Sequence record: KY703222 | Source of the DNA: Escherichia phage phiC120 | Strand: one strand, 5' to 3' | Length of the DNA stretch: 64,000 bases | In this document: one piece after another, positions 4,809-16,881 of the stretch | Position numbering within the stretch: the stretch's first letter is position 1 | Layout: the number at the start of each line of letters is the position of its first letter | Made by a program: the position numbers and the translations under genes | Notes under the pieces: model-generated | Databases searched by the model: none | What the model saw: only the letters and a program-made list of their open reading frames with translations | What the model was told of the DNA's origin: nothing

Positions 4809-5143
4809 AATAAGAAATCTAACGTATTAGTTTTTTCACCACGAGCAACTGATGGGCGAAGCATATTTTCGTCAATTGCTTCACTTGTAATTTTTTCAAC
4901 AATTCCTGTAGGAATAAATTTAGCAAATTGTGTTTCTGGAATAGAATTTTCTTCCAAGAAAGCAGTTGTTGCTTCTAAATAAGACATACCAAATTGTTCA
5001 ACCATGGATTCGATAATGAATCCGTTTTCTTGACGGTCAAGCAATTTAGCGATATCATCTTTATCGTGTTTTACTGCTAATTCTTGTTCAGATAAACCGG
5101 CCTCATCAACCGGTTTAATATCACTTAGTGAAAACTGTGTCAT
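4805..5143 (-). CDS. 33: Late transcription co-activator gp33
   Basis: 112 aa as in T4; C-terminal LDFLL clamp-binding-type motif. Confidence 0.8.
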   Translation of the reverse strand: MTQFSLSDIKPVDEAGLSEQELAVKHDKDDIAKLLDRQENGFIIESMVEQFGMSYLEATTAFLEENSIPETQFAKFIPTGIVEKITSEAIDENMLRPSVARGEKTNTLDFLL

Positions 5144-6435: not shown

Positions 6436-9400
6436 ATGGTTGACATCAAACGTAAGTTCAGGGCCGAAGATGGTCTTGACGCAGGCGGTGATAAGATAGT
6501 TAACGTTGCGCTTGCTGACCGCACAGTTGGCACCGATGGCGTGAACGTTGACTTTTTGGTGCAAGAAAACACCGTACAGAATTATGACGATACGCGCGCG
6601 TATACAAAAGATTTTATTGTTCTTTATGATAATCGTTTTTATCAAGCTTTAAGCGATATTCCAGCTCCGGCAGGCCCTTTCTCTTTGGCTAAATGGAAGG
6701 CAACTCGTACAGATGCAGAATGGATTACAGTTCAAGGCGGAGATTTCCAATTATCAGTAGGTAACTCTATTGCGGTTGATACTTCAGCTGGCACTGATAT
6801 TAATTTCACTTTGCCTCAAAATCCTTTAGATGGCGATACAGTTATTTTGTCTGATATTGGCGGTAGAGTAGGCTATGTAAAAGTTCAAATTACTGCAGCG
6901 GCTCAAAGTATTGTAAACTTTAGAGGACAGCAGGTTCGTTCAGTTTTAATGACGCACCCAAAATCTAAAATGGTCTTCATTTTTAGCAACCGCCTATGGC
7001 AAATGTATGTTTCTGATTACGAACGTAATGCAGTCACAGTAACTCCTGCTAAGCCATATCAGGCGCAACCTAACGATTTTATCATTCGACGTTTTACATC
7101 AGCCGCTCCTATTAATATTACATTGCCTCGCAATGCTAATAATGGCGATATTATTAATTTAGTTGTTTTAGACAAATTAAACCCATTATATCACACAATT
7201 GTCAAAACTTACGATGATACAACTTCTATACGAGAAGCCGGTGTTCATGTAGCAGAAGGACGTAATACTGCGGAAGCATTCTTTGTTTATGATTCTGCTA
7301 ATAGCTTATGGCGTGTTTGGGAAGGTGACCAGAAATCTCGTTTACGTATAGTTCGTAATGATACTGATTTACACCCTAATGAAGAAGTTCTTGTTTTTGG
7401 AACTAATAATGATACAATCTCGACGGTAAATCTTACTTTGCCTACAGATATTTTGTCTGGTGATACTGTTAAAATATCGTTGAATTATATGCGTAAAGGG
7501 CAAACTGTAAAAATTAAAGCTGCCGAAGGCGATACAATTGCTAGCAGTATTTCTTTATTACAGTTCCCAAAACGTTCAGAGTATCCACCTGATGCACAAT
7601 GGGTTTCTGTTAATGAGTTGGAATTTAATGGTGATACTTCGTATGTACCTGTACTTGAGTTAGCTTATATAGAAGATTATTCATCTGAAACAAAATATTG
7701 GGTAGTTCAACAAAACACCGTAACCGTCGAACGAGTCGATGCATCGAGCAATACAACTCGAGCTCGTTTAGGTGTTATTGCTCTTGCTTCTCAAGCGCAA
7801 GCAAATGTTGATTTAGAAAATGCTCCTGGTAAAGAACTGGCTATTACTCCGGAAACATTAGCAAATCGTACAGCAACTGAAACTCGTCGTGGTATTGCTC
7901 GTATTGCAACAACTGCACAAGTTAACCAGAACACCGATTTTGCATTCCAAGACGACTTGATTATTTCTCCTAAGAAATTGAACGAACGTACAGCAACTGA
8001 AACCCGTAGAGGTGTTGCTGAAGTTGCAACTCAGGCTGAAACTAATGCTGGCACAGATGATACCACTATTATTACTCCTAAGAAATTGGATGCTCGTCAA
8101 GGTTCTGAAGTTTTATCTGGTATTGTAAAATACACATCTACGACTGGTACTACAGCTGCTACTATTCGTGGTAATGCTGGGACTAACGTTTATAACAAAG
8201 CTGTAGATAATTTAACTATTTCTCCAAAGGCTCTTGACCAGTATAAAGCTACCCCTACTCAACAGGGCGCAGTAATTCTTGCTATTGAAAGTGAAGTTAT
8301 CGCTGGCGAATCACAAGCCGGTTGGGCTAATGCTGTAGTGACTCCTGAAACTCTGCATAAGAAAACTTCTACTGATGGACGTATTGGTTTAATTGAAATT
8401 GCTACGCAAGCAGAAACTAACACTGGAACTGATTATACTAGAGCAGTAACGCCTAAGACGTTAAATGATAGGAAAGCTACGGAAGGATTATCCGGCATAG
8501 CCGAAATTGCTACGCAAGTTGAATTTGATACTGGAACTGACGATACTCGTATCTCGTCTCCACTGAAAATTAAAACTCATTTTGATTCTTCTGACCGTAC
8601 CAGTGTTAATTCTGATTCCGGACTTATTGAAGAAGGAACCTTGTGGAACCATTATACTCTTGATATTTCTAAAGCAAATGAAACACAACGCGGTACACTT
8701 CGCGTAGCGACCCAAGCAGAATCTAATGCAGGAACTTTAGATGATGTTCTTATTACTCCTAAAAAGCTTTTAGGGACTAAGTCCACTGAAACATCTGAAG
8801 GTGTAATTAAGGTTGCTACTCAAGATGAAACTGTAACGGGAACTTCTGCTAATACTGCTGTATCTCCTAAGAATTTAAAATGGATTGTTCAATCAGAACC
8901 AACATGGGCTGCTACTACGGCAATTCGTGGATTCGTTAAAACTTCATCTGGTTCTATTACATTCGTTGGTGACGATACTCAAGGTAGTACCCAGGACCTG
9001 AATCTTTACGAGAAAAATAGTTATGCTATTTCTCCATATGAATTAAACCGTGTACTTGCTAACTATTTGCCATTGAAAGCTAAAGCCGTAGATAGTAATC
9101 TGTTAGATGGTCTAGATTCTCTTCAGTTCATCCGTAGAGACATCGACCAGACGGTTAATGGTTCTTTAAGTCTTACTAAACAGACCAACCTGAGTGCTCC
9201 TTTAGTATCTACAAGCACTGCTTCTTTTGGGTCCGAAGCATCTGTTACTCGTAGATTAACTCTTAATGACTCTAGCGGTTCCGAAATAGTTTTCACTAAA
9301 GGAACTCAATCTCTTAGTAATAAAGAGAATTTCGTTGTTAGAGCATGGGGTAATAGCGCTACAGATGGTGCCCGTGATACAATATTTGAAGCTGGTGACG

Positions 9401-10269
9401 AAACCGGATACCATTTCTATTCTCAGCGCGCTTCTGATAATAAAGTATCATTTAATATTAATGGAACACTTTATTCAACAGGTATTGTTTCTACAAATGG
9501 ATTAAATGTTACAGGTGTTTCTACCTTTACCGGGCCTATTAGTGCTACAGGTGAAATTGTTTCTAGTTCTCCTATTGCATTCAGAGCTATTAACGGTAAC
9601 TATGGTGTTATGCTTTATAATGCTGGTGACAGTTCTTATATTGCATTAACTAACTCAGGTGACCAGACAGGGACGTTTAATAACTTACGCCCGATCACGA
9701 TTAACAATGCCACAGGATTAGTTCGTCTTGACAATGGTGTTCAAATCACAAGTGGTGCAACAATAACTACCGGTGGGTTAACTGTAAATAACAGGATTAT
9801 TTCTAATGGCGTTAAAACTGCCACTGTTTATACCGATAAACCAACAGCTTCTACTGTAGGTTTTTGGTCTATTGACATTAACGATTCTGCTGTATATAGC
9901 CAATTCCCTGGTTACTGGACACGTGATAACAAAGGTAACCGTGACCAAGAAATTAAATATCCTGGTACTTTGACTCAATTCGGCAATAGCTTAGATTCGC
10001 TTTATCAGGATTGGATTTGTTATCCTACAGGTGCAAATGGTGGTAGTATTCGTTATACTCGTACCTGGCAGAAAAATAAAGATGCTTGGACTTCATTTGC
10101 AATGGTATTTGATAGTGGCAACCCACCTTCACCTAGCGATGTCGGTGCTATCCCATCTGATAATGCTGTTATTGGAAACCTTACTGTTCGAGACTTCTTA
10201 CAATTAGGAAATGTGAGAATTGTTCCAGACCCGGTTAACAAAACCGTTAAATTTATATGGGTTGAATAA
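6436..10269 (+). CDS. 34: Long tail fiber proximal subunit gp34
   Basis: 1277 aa; extensive identity to T4 gp34 as I recall it, including the repeated TATETRRG... motifs. Confidence 0.97.
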   Translation: MVDIKRKFRAEDGLDAGGDKIVNVALADRTVGTDGVNVDFLVQENTVQNYDDTRAYTKDFIVLYDNRFYQALSDIPAPAGPFSLAKWKATRTDAEWITVQGGDFQLSVGNSIAVDTSAGTDINFTLPQNPLDGDTVILSDIGGRVGYVKVQITAAAQSIVNFRGQQVRSVLMTHPKSKMVFIFSNRLWQMYVSDYERNAVTVTPAKPYQAQPNDFIIRRFTSAAPINITLPRNANNGDIINLVVLDKLNPLYHTIVKTYDDTTSIREAGVHVAEGRNTAEAFFVYDSANSLWRVWEGDQKSRLRIVRNDTDLHPNEEVLVFGTNNDTISTVNLTLPTDILSGDTVKISLNYMRKGQTVKIKAAEGDTIASSISLLQFPKRSEYPPDAQWVSVNELEFNGDTSYVPVLELAYIEDYSSETKYWVVQQNTVTVERVDASSNTTRARLGVIALASQAQANVDLENAPGKELAITPETLANRTATETRRGIARIATTAQVNQNTDFAFQDDLIISPKKLNERTATETRRGVAEVATQAETNAGTDDTTIITPKKLDARQGSEVLSGIVKYTSTTGTTAATIRGNAGTNVYNKAVDNLTISPKALDQYKATPTQQGAVILAIESEVIAGESQAGWANAVVTPETLHKKTSTDGRIGLIEIATQAETNTGTDYTRAVTPKTLNDRKATEGLSGIAEIATQVEFDTGTDDTRISSPLKIKTHFDSSDRTSVNSDSGLIEEGTLWNHYTLDISKANETQRGTLRVATQAESNAGTLDDVLITPKKLLGTKSTETSEGVIKVATQDETVTGTSANTAVSPKNLKWIVQSEPTWAATTAIRGFVKTSSGSITFVGDDTQGSTQDLNLYEKNSYAISPYELNRVLANYLPLKAKAVDSNLLDGLDSLQFIRRDIDQTVNGSLSLTKQTNLSAPLVSTSTASFGSEASVTRRLTLNDSSGSEIVFTKGTQSLSNKENFVVRAWGNSATDGARDTIFEAGDETGYHFYSQRASDNKVSFNINGTLYSTGIVSTNGLNVTGVSTFTGPISATGEIVSSSPIAFRAINGNYGVMLYNAGDSSYIALTNSGDQTGTFNNLRPITINNATGLVRLDNGVQITSGATITTGGLTVNNRIISNGVKTATVYTDKPTASTVGFWSIDINDSAVYSQFPGYWTRDNKGNRDQEIKYPGTLTQFGNSLDSLYQDWICYPTGANGGSIRYTRTWQKNKDAWTSFAMVFDSGNPPSPSDVGAIPSDNAVIGNLTVRDFLQLGNVRIVPDPVNKTVKFIWVE

Positions 10270-11427: not shown

Positions 11428-11435
11428 TATAAATA
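11428..11435 (+). promoter_or_regulatory. T4 late promoter TATAAATA for gene 36
   Basis: Exact TATAAATA 27 nt upstream of gene 36 ATG. Confidence 0.65.
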
Positions 11436-12126: not shown

Positions 12127-15100
12127 ATGGCTACTTTAAAACAAATACAATTTAAAAGAAGCAAAACTGCAGGAGCACGTCCTGCCGCTTCAGTATTAGC
12201 CGAAGGTGAATTGGCTATAAACTTAAAAGACCGTGTACTTTTTACTAAAGATGACCAAGGAAATATTATTGATCTGGGTTTTGCTAAAGGCGGTAGTATT
12301 GACGGGAATGTTATTCATACAGGTAATTATAACCAAACTGGCGATTATACTTTAAATGGTGTCTTCACTCAGACTGGTAATTTTAATTTAACTGGTATTG
12401 CTCGAGTAACTCGTGATATTATCGCCGCTGGGCAGATTATGACTGAAGGCGGAGAACTTATTACAAAAAGTTCAGGTACAGCACATGTTCGTTTTTTCGA
12501 TAACAATAGCCGCGAACGTGGAATCATTTATGCCCCGGCTAATGATGGTTTAACTACACAAGTACTTAATATCAGGGTTCAAGACTACGCCGCTGGTGGT
12601 GAAAGCACCTATGCATTTTCGGGCAGTGGACTATTTACTTCACCTGAAGTATCAGCATGGAAATCTATTTCGTCTCCACAAATTCTGACCGACAAAGTTA
12701 TTACAAATGGGAAGAAGACAGGCGATTATGATATCTATTCATTATCAAATAACACTCCAATGGCAGAAGGCGAAACGGCTATTAACCACCTCCGTGTTAT
12801 GCGAAATGCTGTAGGAGCAGGTATTTTCCACGAAGTTAATGTTAATGACGGAATAACCTGGTATTCCGGAGATGGCTTAGACACTTATCTTTGGTCGTTT
12901 AACTGGGCCGGTGGATTGAAAGCGGGTCATTCTATTTCTATAGGTATCCCAGGCGGTCCAAAAGGACATTCTGAATTAGGAACTGCTTCGATTGCTCTTG
13001 GTGATAATGACACCGGGTTAAAATGGCATCAAGATGGATATTTCTATACAGTAAACAACGGAACAAAAACTTTCATCTATGGTCCAGGAGAAACGCAAAG
13101 CCTTAGAAAAATGGTTATGGCTTATTCTCCAGATGGGCTTCTTATGACAACGCCACCGACAGAAAACTATGCTTTGGCCACTGTTGTTACTTACCATGAT
13201 AATAACGCGTATGGTGACGGTCAAACTCTTTTAGGTTATTACCAAGGCGGTAACTATCATCACTATTTCCGCGGTAAGGGTACTACAAACATTAATACTC
13301 ATGGCGGTTTGTTAGTTACTCCAGGTAATATTGATGTTATTGGCGGTTCTGTTAATATAGATGGTAGAAATAATTCTTCTACACTAATGTTTAGAGGCAA
13401 CACAGCAGGATACAGCTCGGTTGATAATATGGATATTAAAGTTTGGGGTAATACGTTTGTTGATCCAAGCGGAGGTATCCGTAAAAACATTATGGAAATT
13501 TCTGATGCAACTAGCTGGATGAGCTATATTCAAAGACTTACTACTGGCGAAGTAGAAATGAACGTTAATGGTTCATTTGAATCATCTGGTGTTACTGCTG
13601 GAGATAGAGGAGTTCACACAACAGGTGAAATTTCATCTGGAGCAGTGAATGCTCTTCGTATTTGGAACGCAGATTATGGAGCCATTTTTAGACGTTCAGA
13701 AGGAAGTCTTCATATTATTCCAACTGCTTATGGCGAAGGCAAAGATGGCGATATCGGTCCACTTCGCCCGTTTAGTATGGCTTTAGATACCGGTAAAGTT
13801 ACTATTCCAGATTTACAATCAAGTTACAATACGTTTGCTGCGAATGGCTATATTAAATTTGTTGGTCATGGAGCGGGTGCCGGCGGTTATGACATTCAAT
13901 ATGTTCAAGCGGCTCCTATTTTCCAGGAAATCGATGATGACGCTGTAAGCAAATATTATCCTATTGTTAAACAGAAGTTTTTAAACGGTAAATCCGTTTG
14001 GTCTTTAGGTACCGAAATTGAATCAGGTACATTCGTTATTCATCATCTGAAAGAAGATGGTTCACAAGGCCATGCGTCTCGTTTTAATCAAGACGGTACT
14101 GTTAACTTCCCAGATAACGTTCTGGTCAGCGGCGATATTAACATGAAAGGCGTGATGACTTTTGACCCCGGACGTTTAGGATCACGAGATTATTTTAAAT
14201 TTAACCATTGGGGTGATAGTAATAATGGTCGTGATAACATCATCCAGTTAGAAGATAGTCGAGGCGCTCATTTTTCCACTGAACGTACTTTAGCGACAGG
14301 TGCAATTAAAACTCGTTTCTTTGGCGAAACCTTCACTGACGGTACATTATACCTAAATCAGATGAATAATAGCTCTGAACGATTCTCTATCAACAATTGG
14401 GGAAATTCAGAAGTTGGTCGCGCGGCAGTATTGGAAGTCGGCGATTCAAAAGGTTATCACTTCTATGCTGAACGCAGGACAGATAACAGTTTGATGTTTG
14501 ATGTTGCTGGTGCTTTGACCGTGCATGGACCTAACGGAATAACCATCAAAAACTCAACTGGTGCACGACATATCTGGTTTAGAGATGATAGCGATGCAGA
14601 AAAGGCTGTTATCTGGGCTACAGATGATGGTATTTTACATATACGAAATAATTATGGGGGTTCATTTAGTCATCACTTCCGGGGTGCAATGATTCTAGCG
14701 GGAGAGCGTGTTCCATATAATAGTGAATACGCTCTTATCCGTGGTAATATTTCCGGTGGTGCATGGGTAGACTGGCGAGATCGTCCGGCTGGATTATTGG
14801 TAGACTGTCAGGACTCACGAAATCAAGCATATAACATTTGGAAAGCTACTCATTGGGGCGAACAGCACCTTGCGGCGATGGGTGTTCATGCTGGCGGTGG
14901 TAATCCTCATGTTGTATTGCATGTGGGTGGGAATGATTATGCATTTGCATCTAACGGTGATTTTACTGCTGGTGCTGCTGTATATTGTAACGACGTTTAT
15001 ATTCGTTCTGACCGTCGTCTGAAAATTAATGTTGAAGACTACGAAGAGAATGCGGTGGATAAGGTAAATAAACTCAAAGTTAAAACCTATGATAAAGTTA

Positions 15101-15360
15101 AATCTCTTTCTGACCGCGAAGTTATCGGCCATGAGATTGGTATTATCGCACAGGATTTGCAAGAAGTATTACCGGAAGCTGTTAGCACTTCTAGTGTCGG
15201 ATCTCAGGATAACCCAGAAGAAATTTTAACAATTTCAAACTCTGCTGTGAACGCGCTTTTAATTAAGGCCATTCAGGAAATGAGCGAAGAAATTAAAGAA
15301 TTGAAAACGCCTCTCTTTACTAAAATTGCTCGCAAAATTAGTAAATATTTTAAATTCTAA
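12127..15360 (+). CDS. 37: Long tail fiber distal subunit gp37, T2-type with C-terminal intramolecular chaperone (S74-like) domain
   Basis: 1077 aa; conserved N-terminus; C-terminal SDRRLKIN...helical tail typical of self-cleaving chaperone domains. Confidence 0.9.
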   Translation: MATLKQIQFKRSKTAGARPAASVLAEGELAINLKDRVLFTKDDQGNIIDLGFAKGGSIDGNVIHTGNYNQTGDYTLNGVFTQTGNFNLTGIARVTRDIIAAGQIMTEGGELITKSSGTAHVRFFDNNSRERGIIYAPANDGLTTQVLNIRVQDYAAGGESTYAFSGSGLFTSPEVSAWKSISSPQILTDKVITNGKKTGDYDIYSLSNNTPMAEGETAINHLRVMRNAVGAGIFHEVNVNDGITWYSGDGLDTYLWSFNWAGGLKAGHSISIGIPGGPKGHSELGTASIALGDNDTGLKWHQDGYFYTVNNGTKTFIYGPGETQSLRKMVMAYSPDGLLMTTPPTENYALATVVTYHDNNAYGDGQTLLGYYQGGNYHHYFRGKGTTNINTHGGLLVTPGNIDVIGGSVNIDGRNNSSTLMFRGNTAGYSSVDNMDIKVWGNTFVDPSGGIRKNIMEISDATSWMSYIQRLTTGEVEMNVNGSFESSGVTAGDRGVHTTGEISSGAVNALRIWNADYGAIFRRSEGSLHIIPTAYGEGKDGDIGPLRPFSMALDTGKVTIPDLQSSYNTFAANGYIKFVGHGAGAGGYDIQYVQAAPIFQEIDDDAVSKYYPIVKQKFLNGKSVWSLGTEIESGTFVIHHLKEDGSQGHASRFNQDGTVNFPDNVLVSGDINMKGVMTFDPGRLGSRDYFKFNHWGDSNNGRDNIIQLEDSRGAHFSTERTLATGAIKTRFFGETFTDGTLYLNQMNNSSERFSINNWGNSEVGRAAVLEVGDSKGYHFYAERRTDNSLMFDVAGALTVHGPNGITIKNSTGARHIWFRDDSDAEKAVIWATDDGILHIRNNYGGSFSHHFRGAMILAGERVPYNSEYALIRGNISGGAWVDWRDRPAGLLVDCQDSRNQAYNIWKATHWGEQHLAAMGVHAGGGNPHVVLHVGGNDYAFASNGDFTAGAAVYCNDVYIRSDRRLKINVEDYEENAVDKVNKLKVKTYDKVKSLSDREVIGHEIGIIAQDLQEVLPEAVSTSSVGSQDNPEEILTISNSAVNALLIKAIQEMSEEIKELKTPLFTKIARKISKYFKF

Positions 15361-15365
15361 CAACA

Positions 15366-15382
15366 AGGGGGAAATGCCCCCT
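15366..15382 (+). terminator. Hairpin (AGGGGG-aaatg-CCCCCT, then TTT) after gene 37
   Basis: GC stem read directly; weak U-run, may be attenuating rather than terminating. Confidence 0.4.
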
Positions 15383-15396
15383 TTGGAGTATAAATT

Positions 15397-16176
15397 ATGG
15401 CAGTAGTTGGAGTTCCTGGCTGGATTGGAAGTTCAGCCGTAAATGAAACGGGCCAGCGCTGGATGAGTCAAGCAGCTGGTCAATTAAGATTGGGTGTTCC
15501 TTGCTGGATGAGTCAATTTGCAGGTCGCTCAAGAGAAATTATTCACACTCTTGGAGCAGACCATAACTTTAATGGTCAATGGTTCCGTGACCGTTGTTTT
15601 GAAGCCGGTGGCGCTCCTATAGTGTTTAATATCACAGGCAACTTAGTATCATATTCTAAAGACGTTCCTTTATTCTTCATGTATGGTGATACTCCTAACG
15701 AATATGTTACTTTGAATATTCATGGTGGTGTTCATATGTGGGGCCGAGGTGGTAACGGTACTGTAAACGGAAACCCAGGCACAAATGGCGGCGATGTAAT
15801 CCAAAATGATATCGGCGGAAGACTTCGTATTTGGAACTATGGCGTTATTGCATCAGGCGGTGGTGGTGGTGGTGCAGTGTCATTACAGAATAGCTGGGCG
15901 CCAAATGCTACAGCAGGTGGCGGTGGTGGTAGACCATTTGGCATCGGCGGAGGCGGCGTTAATTGGCCGGGTGGTAATGCTAGTTATGACGCCCCGGGCG
16001 GCGCCGGTTACACTTCCCAATTCGGCGGAGGCAATGGCGGCGATGCTGGAGGTCGGGGCGGAGATGGATGGGGTAATCACTTATCTAGATCTGGTGGCGG
16101 TGCTCCTGGCAGAGCAGTATTCGGAAGTTCACCGTCATGGGGTGCTACAGGCACAATCTACGGCTCCTGGATTTAA
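15397..16176 (+). CDS. 38: Receptor-recognising adhesin gp38 (T2-type, glycine-rich motifs)
   Basis: 259 aa; conserved N-terminal half; C-terminal half has poly-Gly blocks separated by variable segments. Confidence 0.85.
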
Positions 16177-16194
16177 ACGATAATACCTCTCAAT

Positions 16195-16202: not shown

Positions 16203-16221
16203 TTGATAAATGGGAGGTAAT

Positions 16222-16881
16222 ATGGCAGCACCAAAAGTATCATTTTCGCCTAGTGATATTTTATTTGGGTTGCTAGACCGCATTTTCAAAGATAACGCCT
16301 CTGGAAATATTCTTATTTCAAGAGTTGCTGTTGTAGTTCTTTTGTTCCTAATGGCACTAATATGGTACAAAGGGAGTATTTTTATGGATTATTACGTGAG
16401 GTCGAAATATGATACTTACACAGAAGTAATTCAAAAAGAAAGAAATACACGATTTGAATCTGCGGCTTTAGAACAACTACAAATAGTCCACGTCACATCA
16501 AGGGCGGATTTTAGTTCGGTGTATTCTTTCAGACCTAAAAATCTAAATTATTTCGTCGACCTTATTGCGTATGAAGGTAAGTTACCTAGCACAGTAACTG
16601 AAAAATCTATGGGAGGATTTCCTGTCGATAAAACAACAGCAGAATATTCGGTCCATTTAAGTGGACTTCACTTTACTTCTAAAACAGATTTTGCTTTCTT
16701 ACCTACCAAAACAAAAACTCCGGAATTAGCATATATGTATAGTTGTCCTTACTTCAATTTGGATAACATATATGCTGGAACTGTTTCTATGTATTGGTAT
16801 AAGGGGTCGGACGTGTTAAATGAAGAACGCTTGGCTGCAATATGCAACCAAGCAGCAAGGATATTAGGGCGAGCTAAATAA
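16222..16881 (+). CDS. t: Holin T
   Basis: 219 aa from ATG 16222 (GGGAGG RBS); strong identity to T4 holin; ORF track start 16210 lies in the RBS. Confidence 0.9.
   Translation: MAAPKVSFSPSDILFGLLDRIFKDNASGNILISRVAVVVLLFLMALIWYKGSIFMDYYVRSKYDTYTEVIQKERNTRFESAALEQLQIVHVTSRADFSSVYSFRPKNLNYFVDLIAYEGKLPSTVTEKSMGGFPVDKTTAEYSVHLSGLHFTSKTDFAFLPTKTKTPELAYMYSCPYFNLDNIYAGTVSMYWYKGSDVLNEERLAAICNQAARILGRAK

Follow-up and report, generated by a model that had tools for sequence, protein, structure and literature searches.

The gp37-gp38 module of Escherichia phage phiC120: a tail-fibre tip of T2/S16 type with OmpF as its predicted receptor

The locus and its signals

The window, that is, the whole stretch of 64,000 nucleotides analysed from Escherichia phage phiC120 (record KY703222), belongs to a Mosigvirus, an RB69-like T-even phage. 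A Pfam search of it recovers the canonical T-even order g34-g35-g36-g37-g38-t: g38 lies directly 3' of g37 and 5' of the holin gene t, a layout found also in seven annotated relatives. The g37 and g38 ORFs occupy exactly the coordinates of the initial annotation, and the pair is 97.4% identical at the nucleotide level to g37-g38 of Shigella phage ESh27. Genes and neighbouring signals are as follows.

11428..11435, + strand: T4-type late-promoter consensus TATAAATA, exact motif, 5' of gene 36
12127..15360, + strand: gene 37, long tail fibre distal subunit precursor, 1077 aa (phrog_1699 over its full length, E 0)
15364..15385, + strand: GC-rich RNA hairpin in the g37-g38 spacer (-14.7 kcal/mol, z -2.3)
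15397..16176, + strand: gene 38, tail-fibre tip adhesin, 259 aa (PF21721 and PF05268; structures 6F45_D and 9V85)

The promoter motif is probably the start of a late g36-g37-g38 transcript, a function we infer; the fPS-2 record has a 'predicted late promoter' marked at the corresponding position. The hairpin is adjoined on its 3' side by a GGAG Shine-Dalgarno sequence (15385-15388). RB69, Bas47, T2 and fPS-2 carry a hairpin at the equivalent place between g37 and g38, with other stem sequences and often with a UUCG loop.

The body and distal cassette of gp37

13378..13806, + strand: gp37 aa 418-560, copy 1 of a gp34-C-terminal-like trimerisation domain (PF21446 at aa 453-550)
14107..15006, + strand: gp37 aa 661-960, distal cassette, an allele other than that of RB69/Bas47 (drop in protein and DNA identity)
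14332..14517, + strand: gp37 aa 736-797, copy 2 (partial) of the gp34-like motif (blastp and PDB match)
14680..15006, + strand: gp37 aa ~852-960, terminal domain (similarity to siphophage fibre C-termini)
15004..15009, + strand: predicted autocleavage site Arg960/Ser961 (alignment with S16, fPS and T5 pb1)
15007..15357, + strand: gp37 aa 961-1077, intramolecular chaperone domain, 117 aa (PF13884, 6F45_A, SDxRxK)

Copy 1 of the gp34-like domain matches T4 gp34 chains 4UXE/5NXF (E 3e-12) and aa 949-1098 of the window's own gp34 (blastp, E 4e-13); copy 2 matches aa 953-1012 of that same gp34 at 41% identity (blastp, E 2e-10), and 4UXE_A (E 1.4e-3). The distal cassette, common to ESh27, Bas46 and FL33, is marked off by a fall in protein identity to RB69/Bas47, from 83-100% just upstream to 8-32% within it; DNA identity to the RB69/Bas47 allele falls to about 40% from nt ~14100. 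At least 80% of the cassette is covered in 99 phage records (tblastn).

That gp37 ends in a domain of intramolecular-chaperone type, as first proposed, is borne out by PF13884 (Peptidase_S74) at aa 961-1019 (54.7 bits, E 1.3e-14; Pfam cut-off, 22 bits) and by Ser961 (15007-15009) and Lys966 (15022-15024) in an SDxRxK motif, here SDRRLKIN, which starts at Ser961, nt 15007. Residues 921-1061 align with S16 gp37 chain 6F45_A. The motif is present in 20 of 20 gp37 relatives, whose chaperone domains span 99-117 aa, and (D/N)VY(I/V)R stands just before it in 20 of 20; the Ser-to-Lys spacing of 5 matches that of T5 pb1 (S1264/K1269). Alignment predicts a scissile bond N-terminal to the serine, R960^S961: the aligned sites are DLNVS^SDRRIKK in S16, which is cleaved before the serine, and DVYIR^SDGRLKI in fPS (PMC7917993), and T5 pb1 is cut at the Thr1263-Ser1264 bond, again N-terminal to the serine (PMC4690869). 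Translation would yield a precursor of 1077 aa in which the final 117 residues act as the Peptidase_S74 chaperone that templates folding of the fibre-end trimer; the chaperone would then cut itself off at the Arg960-Ser961 bond, in an autoproteolysis that depends on Ser961/Lys966, and the mature tip would end ...NDVYIR.

The gp38 adhesin

Family membership of gp38 is consistent across searches, with matches of a strength that chance does not explain: PF21721 at aa 1-42 (E 1.4e-20, 73.5 bits; cut-off 25), PF05268 (GP38) at aa 47-259 (E 5.7e-83, 278.5 bits; cut-off 25), phrog_2056 'tail fiber protein; host specificity' (E 5.8e-110), the S16 gp38 crystal chain 6F45_D (E 1e-48 over aa 5-259) and PP01 gp38 (9V85, E 1.6e-72). 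Outside these two, no Pfam family, chaperone families included, matches gp38 at E <= 0.01. A conservation profile from an alignment of 23 adhesins divides the protein thus.

15397..15534, + strand: aa 1-46, attachment domain with Trp9, Trp22 and Trp37 (invariant Trp columns)
15535..15741, + strand: aa 47-115, most conserved core (mean column entropy 0.64)
15742..16098, + strand: aa 116-234, glycine-rich motifs alternating with five variable segments (conservation profile)
15760..15786, + strand: V1, aa 122-130, TVNGNPGTN, PP01 loop A (entropy and indels; maps to PP01 W119-I124)
15874..15915, + strand: V2, aa 160-173, PP01 loop B (entropy profile, PP01 mapping)
15952..15969, + strand: V3, aa 186-191, GGVNWP, PP01 loop C (entropy profile, PP01 mapping)
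15985..16029, + strand: V4, aa 197-211, PP01 loop D (entropy profile, PP01 mapping)
16054..16098, + strand: V5, aa 220-234, PP01 loop E (entropy profile, PP01 mapping)
16099..16173, + strand: aa 235-259, conserved C-terminal segment (conserved alignment columns)

The initial annotation described a conserved N-terminal half. This holds for aa 47-115, which are 97-99% identical to all OmpF-group adhesins and 90% identical to PP01, and which would by homology form a beta-helix region; it does not hold for aa 1-46, where mean column entropy is 1.03 (C-terminal half, 1.07) and the sequences fall into discrete subtypes. The subtype found here is common to fPS-2, FL33, Bas46 and ESh27 and is not that of RB69 (54.5% identity).

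Within the attachment domain, the W9, W22 and W37 columns are invariant in every aligned adhesin covering them, S16 included (the PP01 crystal fragment begins at residue 36). In S16 the three tryptophans fit into pockets of the gp37 tip (PMC6851490). One gp38 molecule may likewise dock on the gp37 tip via its N-terminal helical domain (Trp9, Trp22, Trp37), with a presumed gp37:gp38 ratio of 3:1; the geometry is extrapolated, as the mature gp37 tip before NDVYIR is very unlike that of S16.

Attachment-domain subtypes go with the subtype of the chaperone domain, not with the mature gp37 tip. Such tracking could reflect a functional hand-over from chaperone domain to gp38 rather than mere genetic linkage.

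Glycine makes up 25% of gp38 overall, 13% of aa 1-110 and 35% of aa 111-259, with runs at G154-159, G174-178 and G184-187. Poly-glycine blocks do split variable segments, as had been noticed from the sequence at the outset: the blocks (aa 116-121, 131-132, 154-159, 174-185, 192-193 and 212-219) are invariant among the 23 adhesins, and variability peaks, and the indels fall, in the segments that they separate. The adhesin alignment, itself a suggestion of the initial annotation, delimits five such segments. They pair one-to-one with receptor loops A-E as defined in the PP01 structure, of which loop E is the main specificity determinant (PMC12892980), and the residues named in that paper are all recovered at their numbers; this coincidence supports the original placing of host specificity in the variable loops of gp38. 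A polyglycine-II sandwich fold is proposed by homology to 6F45/9V85, and from sequence homology only, because the single-sequence AlphaFold2 model (pLDDT 31.8) was unusable. A sandwich of this kind would present the five distal loops to the extracellular loops of an outer-membrane porin.

The predicted receptor

Residues 116-259 of gp38, all five loops included, are 100% identical to RB69 (97% for aa 47-115). Taken by themselves, V1-V5 match RB69, Bas46 and ESh27 at 100% identity, and are identical to the loops of RB51; they are 98% identical to fPS-2 and Bas47, 93% to FL33, and only 20-37% to T2 and to PP01/S16 (OmpC). From Bas46 the whole of gp38 differs by only two substitutions, G72 (S in Bas46) and I183 (L in Bas46), both outside the loops. 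OmpF is needed by RB69/RB51 (PMC3157838), by Bas47 (PMC8594841), by FL33 (PMC12032242) and by fPS-2/fPS-90 (PMC7917993). A Q206L change in the RB51/RB68 adhesin, in a laboratory RB68 stock, is reported to switch the receptor from OmpF to OmpW (bioRxiv 10.64898/2026.04.02.716166); the corresponding residue here (register checked) is Gln208 (CAA, 16018-16020), inside V4, and the OmpF-type residue is kept. Since all five loops match RB69 and RB51 exactly, OmpF is predicted as the most likely porin.

Weighing the readings

With a probability of about 0.9, the module is the distal receptor-binding tip of the long tail fibre of an RB69-like T-even phage, built on the T2/S16 plan: gp37 would cleave itself, gp38 would dock on the resulting tip, and the loops would contact a porin, most likely OmpF. 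Gene order, family membership, motif conservation, the PP01 loop mapping and identity to receptor-tested adhesins are observed; cleavage itself, 3:1 docking, fold and receptor are what we infer from them. Nothing in the sequence was found to argue against the proposed gp37/gp38 architecture. A T4-type arrangement, with a receptor-binding gp37 tip and a gp38 that is only a folding chaperone and leaves the virion, would suit the gene names and positions, which are as in T4, and the label 'assembly catalyst' or 'chaperone' that some database records give to gp38 homologues. It is scarcely credible here, however: gp38 matches adhesin families and two adhesin crystal structures only; gp37 has no T4 gp37 tip chain among its PDB matches at E <= 0.01, and carries an S74 chaperone domain at its C-terminus instead; and the RB69 record itself notes that the 'gp38' of the T2 subfamily is unrelated, and is an adhesin. 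The contrast drawn in the initial annotation, of a receptor-binding gp37 in T4 and a gp38 adhesin here, is the published view (PMC6851490, PMC3157838). The architecture could also be as proposed with a different receptor in place of OmpF, such as OmpW, OmpC or FhuA/LPS co-receptors. A single loop D mutation in the same adhesin group is reported to turn OmpF use into OmpW use; one study found the RB69 group (RB69/RB51) to need FhuA and the complete LPS core as well, perhaps indirectly (Trojet et al., PMC3157838); and a tolC effect has been seen for FL33 too (PMC12032242). This we consider unlikely, with loops identical to RB69/RB51, Gln208 kept, OmpF dependence found independently in four studies of phages whose loops are nearly identical, and the LPS-core dependence of Mosigvirus attributed to the short tail fibre allele.

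A further reading adds to gp38 a second binding element in series, in which gp37 aa ~852-960 would bind a surface glycan or LPS. Taken with the chaperone domain, the terminal domain resembles the lateral tail fibre C-terminus of the T5-like phage Bas26 (36% identity, E 2e-25), and a longer stretch from aa 756 resembles the tail fibre C-terminus of Tlsvirus YSP2 (34% identity, E 5e-32); neither fibre locus has an annotated gp38 gene downstream, and there the homologous domain is the fibre end itself. In T5 pb1, moreover, a site unmasked by chaperone cleavage has been proposed to bind O-antigen (PMC4690869). But the similarity to siphophage fibres may be just that of a common scaffold for chaperone-dependent folding; the gp37 searches returned no match to T5 pb1 itself; the end exposed in siphophages would be capped by gp38; and RB69, Bas47 and fPS-2, with very different gp37 tips, all need OmpF. 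Two elements in series are improbable on this balance, and slightly more doubtful still is the specific proposal, related to that of the chaperone-to-gp38 hand-over, that gp37 aa ~852-960 keeps a binding activity of its own (LPS or other glycan). If true, the fibre would have two serial receptor-binding elements, and the gp37 allele would shape host range independently of gp38.

Significance

The architecture, structure and evolutionary modularity of such modules have been published already (1986-2026), and nothing here is new. The value is mainly in annotation: the primary receptor can be predicted from sequence (OmpF, with Gln208 at the known OmpF/OmpW switch position), and the exact coordinates of the five specificity loops can be used for host-range engineering. 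The module is also another example of receptor-binding cassette exchange between Mosigvirus and Tequatrovirus.

Comparison with known systems

The gp38 proteins of Bas46 ChristianSchoenbein, ESh27 and NHEP29 are nearest, with 99.2% amino acid identity overall and the same gene order. RB69 has that gene order as well, but its gp38 attachment domain is the divergent one described above, and the distal third and chaperone domain of its gp37 are another allele. The S16 tip (6F45) shares both protein families, the SDRRxK motif, the three tryptophans and the glycine-rich motifs in register; its gp38 is about 50% identical (20% in the loops), it uses OmpC, and in the window's gp37 the segment from the GxDxxG-like motif to the cleavage site is much shorter and unrelated. 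PP01 gp38 (9V85) is 64.5% identical overall, 90% in aa 47-115 and 25% in the loops; PP01 binds OmpC of O157 (PMC12892980).

The initial label 'T2-type' stands for the architecture, which is of T2/S16 type, and not for the allele, which is of the RB69/RB51 OmpF type and 52% identical to T2 gp38. T2 gp37, of 1341 aa with a 99-aa chaperone domain, has SDIRLK after NVYIR; its C-terminal processing was demonstrated by Drexler et al. 1986 (cited in PMC3157838), and T2 depends on FadL (BASEL study). T4 shares the gene names, their positions and a conserved gp37 N-terminus and shaft, but there it is the tip of gp37 that binds the receptor, and gp38, an unrelated chaperone, is absent from the virion (PMC6851490). 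The K1F endosialidase and T5 pb1 share the S74 Pfam domain, its place at the extreme C-terminus, the catalytic Ser-x4-Lys pair and, by prediction for the window's gp37, release after trimer folding; in those proteins the cleaved end is the functional tip, whereas here it is proposed to be the docking site for a separate adhesin.

The tail-fibre locus

The tail-fibre tip of phiC120 can be understood as a module of two adjacent genes, one for gp37, the precursor of the distal subunit of the long tail fibre, and one for gp38, the adhesin at its end. Both open reading frames begin and end exactly where the initial annotation had placed them. Main features of the region, by position in the window:

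6436-10269, gp34, the phage's own
11428-11435, TATAAATA, exact T4 late-promoter consensus, upstream of g36
12127-15360, plus strand, gene 37 ORF, 1077 aa
13378-13806, first gp34-like copy within gp37, 31% identity to the phage's own gp34
14332-14517, second gp34-like copy within gp37, 41% identity to the phage's own gp34
15364-15385, GC-rich hairpin between g37 and g38
15397-16176, plus strand, gene 38 ORF, 259 aa
16195-16202, TATAAATA, exact T4 late-promoter consensus, upstream of holin gene t

Three ORFs precede the pair (1277, 374 and 218 aa; Pfam assigns the shortest to gp36), and one of 223 aa, which Pfam assigns to the T holin, follows it. The block has the canonical T-even order g34-g35-g36-g37-g38-t, on a Mosigvirus backbone: from 40 to 64 kb the window shares 97-99% identity with phiE142, JK45, G53 and phages like them, and g36 and t, on either side of the pair, match those of RB69, Bas46 and Bas47 at 95-100%. 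Minus-strand ORFs of the region lie inside well-supported genes and were rejected as genes. So was a plus-strand ORF at 15806-16183 (125 aa), in an alternative frame of g38, which is free of stop codons because the GGN glycine codons raise local GC to 0.52. For the holin ORF (16210-16881) the records conflict: the RB69 annotation starts at 16210 (223 aa), those of ESh27, Bas46 and Bas47 at a second Met 12 nt downstream (219 aa).

The placement of TATAAATA before g36 and before t suggests that g36-g37-g38 form one late transcription unit, t having its own late promoter. A scan for sigma-70 promoters was uninformative, as expected with late genes (19 sites against 17.2 expected). Within the 36-nt spacer, the hairpin (-14.7 kcal/mol) directly adjoins the GGAG ribosome-binding site of g38. 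In RB69, Bas47, T2 and fPS-2 the corresponding spot also holds a hairpin, built on other stems and in many cases with a UUCG loop; therefore its structure, not its sequence, is conserved. It resembles the stable intercistronic hairpins of T4, and a plus-strand terminator scan did not flag it.

A chaperone domain and a predicted cut

The initial annotation had gp37 ending in a chaperone-type domain that opens with SDRRLKIN, and this is confirmed: the domain starts at Ser961 (nt 15007), and PF13884 (Peptidase_S74, 'chaperone of endosialidase') scores 54.7 bits over aa 961-1019 (cut-off 22). The stretch aa 921-1061 aligns with the S16 gp37 chain of PDB 6F45; the PDB search with gp37 matched no chain of the T4 gp37 tip. 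In all 20 gp37 sequences from related loci, SDxRxK follows (D/N)VY(I/V)R and is itself followed by a further 99-117 residues. In T5 pb1, where Ser1264 and Lys1269 have the same Ser-x4-Lys spacing, cleavage falls between Thr1263 and Ser1264, and the released chaperone takes the Ser with it (PMC4690869); the S16 site is DLNVS^SDRRIKK, and that of the fPS phages DVYIR^SDGRLKI (PMC7917993). Together with the conservation of SDxRxK, these sites lead us to predict cleavage at Arg960^Ser961, freeing 117 residues. The classical precedent is C-terminal processing of T2 gp37 (Drexler et al. 1986, as cited in PMC3157838).

Architecture of the adhesin

Family membership of gp38 is settled by sequence matches to two crystal structures: along its full length it aligns with S16 gp38 (6F45_D, 1e-48) and with the receptor-binding domain of PP01 gp38 (9V85, 1.6e-72). 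In Pfam it matches PF21721 over aa 1-42 and PF05268 over aa 47-259 (E 5.7e-83), which together span the protein. AlphaFold2, run without an alignment, gave an unusable model (mean pLDDT 31.8, pTM 0.21).

Over aa 1-110 the glycine content is 13%, and it rises to 35% over aa 111-259. Across 23 aligned adhesins (19 once sequences >97% identical were taken out), Trp9, Trp22, Trp37 and the glycine blocks are invariant, and high-entropy columns and indels group in five segments: aa 122-130, 160-173, 186-191, 197-211 and 220-234. PP01 numbering was carried through this alignment, and all residues that the PP01 paper names came out at their own numbers (PMC12892980); receptor loops A-E of PP01 fall inside the five segments. 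The proposal that glycine blocks separate variable segments holds, as do both the observation and the interpretation of a gp37 with a C-terminal chaperone domain paired with a gp38 adhesin. The 'conserved N-terminal half' needs amendment: aa 47-115 are a conserved core, and aa 1-46 come in discrete subtypes.

A mobile cassette

DNA identity to RB69 and Bas47, >90% upstream, is ~40% from nt ~14100 to ~15500 and 94-100% beyond. This low-identity stretch, from about aa 660 of gp37 to about aa 40 of gp38, has sharp recombination boundaries. The exchanged cassette takes in gp37 aa ~660-1077, the intergenic spacer and the attachment domain of gp38. The same cassette is found in ESh27 and Bas46 (Mosigvirus) and in FL33 (Tequatrovirus). 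The Tequatrovirus phages FL33 and fPS-2 are 90-99% identical to the window across much of g37-g38, with the exception of the distal gp37 cassette of fPS-2 (down to ~40%), whereas their g36 and t reach only 65-78%; therefore the module has moved between genera.

Among 20 gp37-gp38 pairs (related loci L001-L021; window 15007-15534), the subtype of the gp38 attachment domain matches that of the chaperone domain perfectly, an association that Trojet et al. termed lock-and-key (PMC3157838). The mature gp37 tip is not tracked by the attachment-domain subtype. Because the mature tips of the window type and the fPS-2 type, very different from each other, share a single subtype of the chaperone domain and a single subtype of the gp38 N-terminus, linkage of adjacent DNA would explain the co-occurrence at least as well as lock-and-key.

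The likely receptor

By tblastn, gp38 is 99.2% identical to that of Bas46, ESh27, NHEP29, phage 132 and G2540, 98.5% to fPS-2, 97.3% to FL33 and 95% to Bas47; its aa 116-259 are 100% identical to RB69 and RB51, whereas loop identity to gp38 of PP01, S16 and T2 is just 20-37%. Dependence on OmpF has been shown for RB69/RB51 (PMC3157838), Bas47 (PMC8594841), FL33 (PMC12032242) and fPS-2/fPS-90 (PMC7917993). For the receptor, Bas47 was used in place of Bas46. According to a 2026 preprint (bioRxiv 10.64898/2026.04.02.716166), Q206L in RB68 switches the target of this adhesin group from OmpF to OmpW. The equivalent in the window is Gln208 (CAA, 16018-16020), therefore the OmpF-type residue; the deposited RB68 record is without the Q206L reported for the laboratory stock, and the equivalence was checked for register only. 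From the near-identical gp38 loops of OmpF-dependent phages and from Gln208, OmpF is the predicted primary receptor.

The fPS-2 genome (LR215722) reads CNA at 5122-5124, corresponding to window 16018-16020, with the second base of the Gln208 codon ambiguous; Q206L of RB68 is an A-to-T change at the same codon position. The fPS-2 stock may have been polymorphic at a site reported to switch receptors.

Relation to other fibres

A gp34-like domain (Pfam Gp34_trimer) occurs twice in gp37; it is also present towards the C-terminal end of gp34 of the same phage. Distal gp37 alone, searched against the PDB at E <= 10, found this gp34-like motif only, and neither T5 pb1 nor another fibre tip. The final ~110 residues of mature gp37 (aa 852-960) with the chaperone domain (14680-15357) share 36% identity with the C-terminal end of the lateral tail fibre of T5-like Bas26 (E 2e-25; locus L022, 1053-4154), and a longer stretch that begins at aa 756 has 34% identity to the C-terminal end of the tail fibre of Tlsvirus YSP2 (E 5e-32; locus L023, 1504-3909). 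No gp38 gene is annotated downstream at either locus. Myo- and siphophages thus have a fibre-end-plus-chaperone cassette in common. The gp37-gp38 module itself is the tail-fibre tip usual in most T-even phages, documented both structurally and genetically; database entries from phages whose receptors have been tested already contain this exact gp38 allele.
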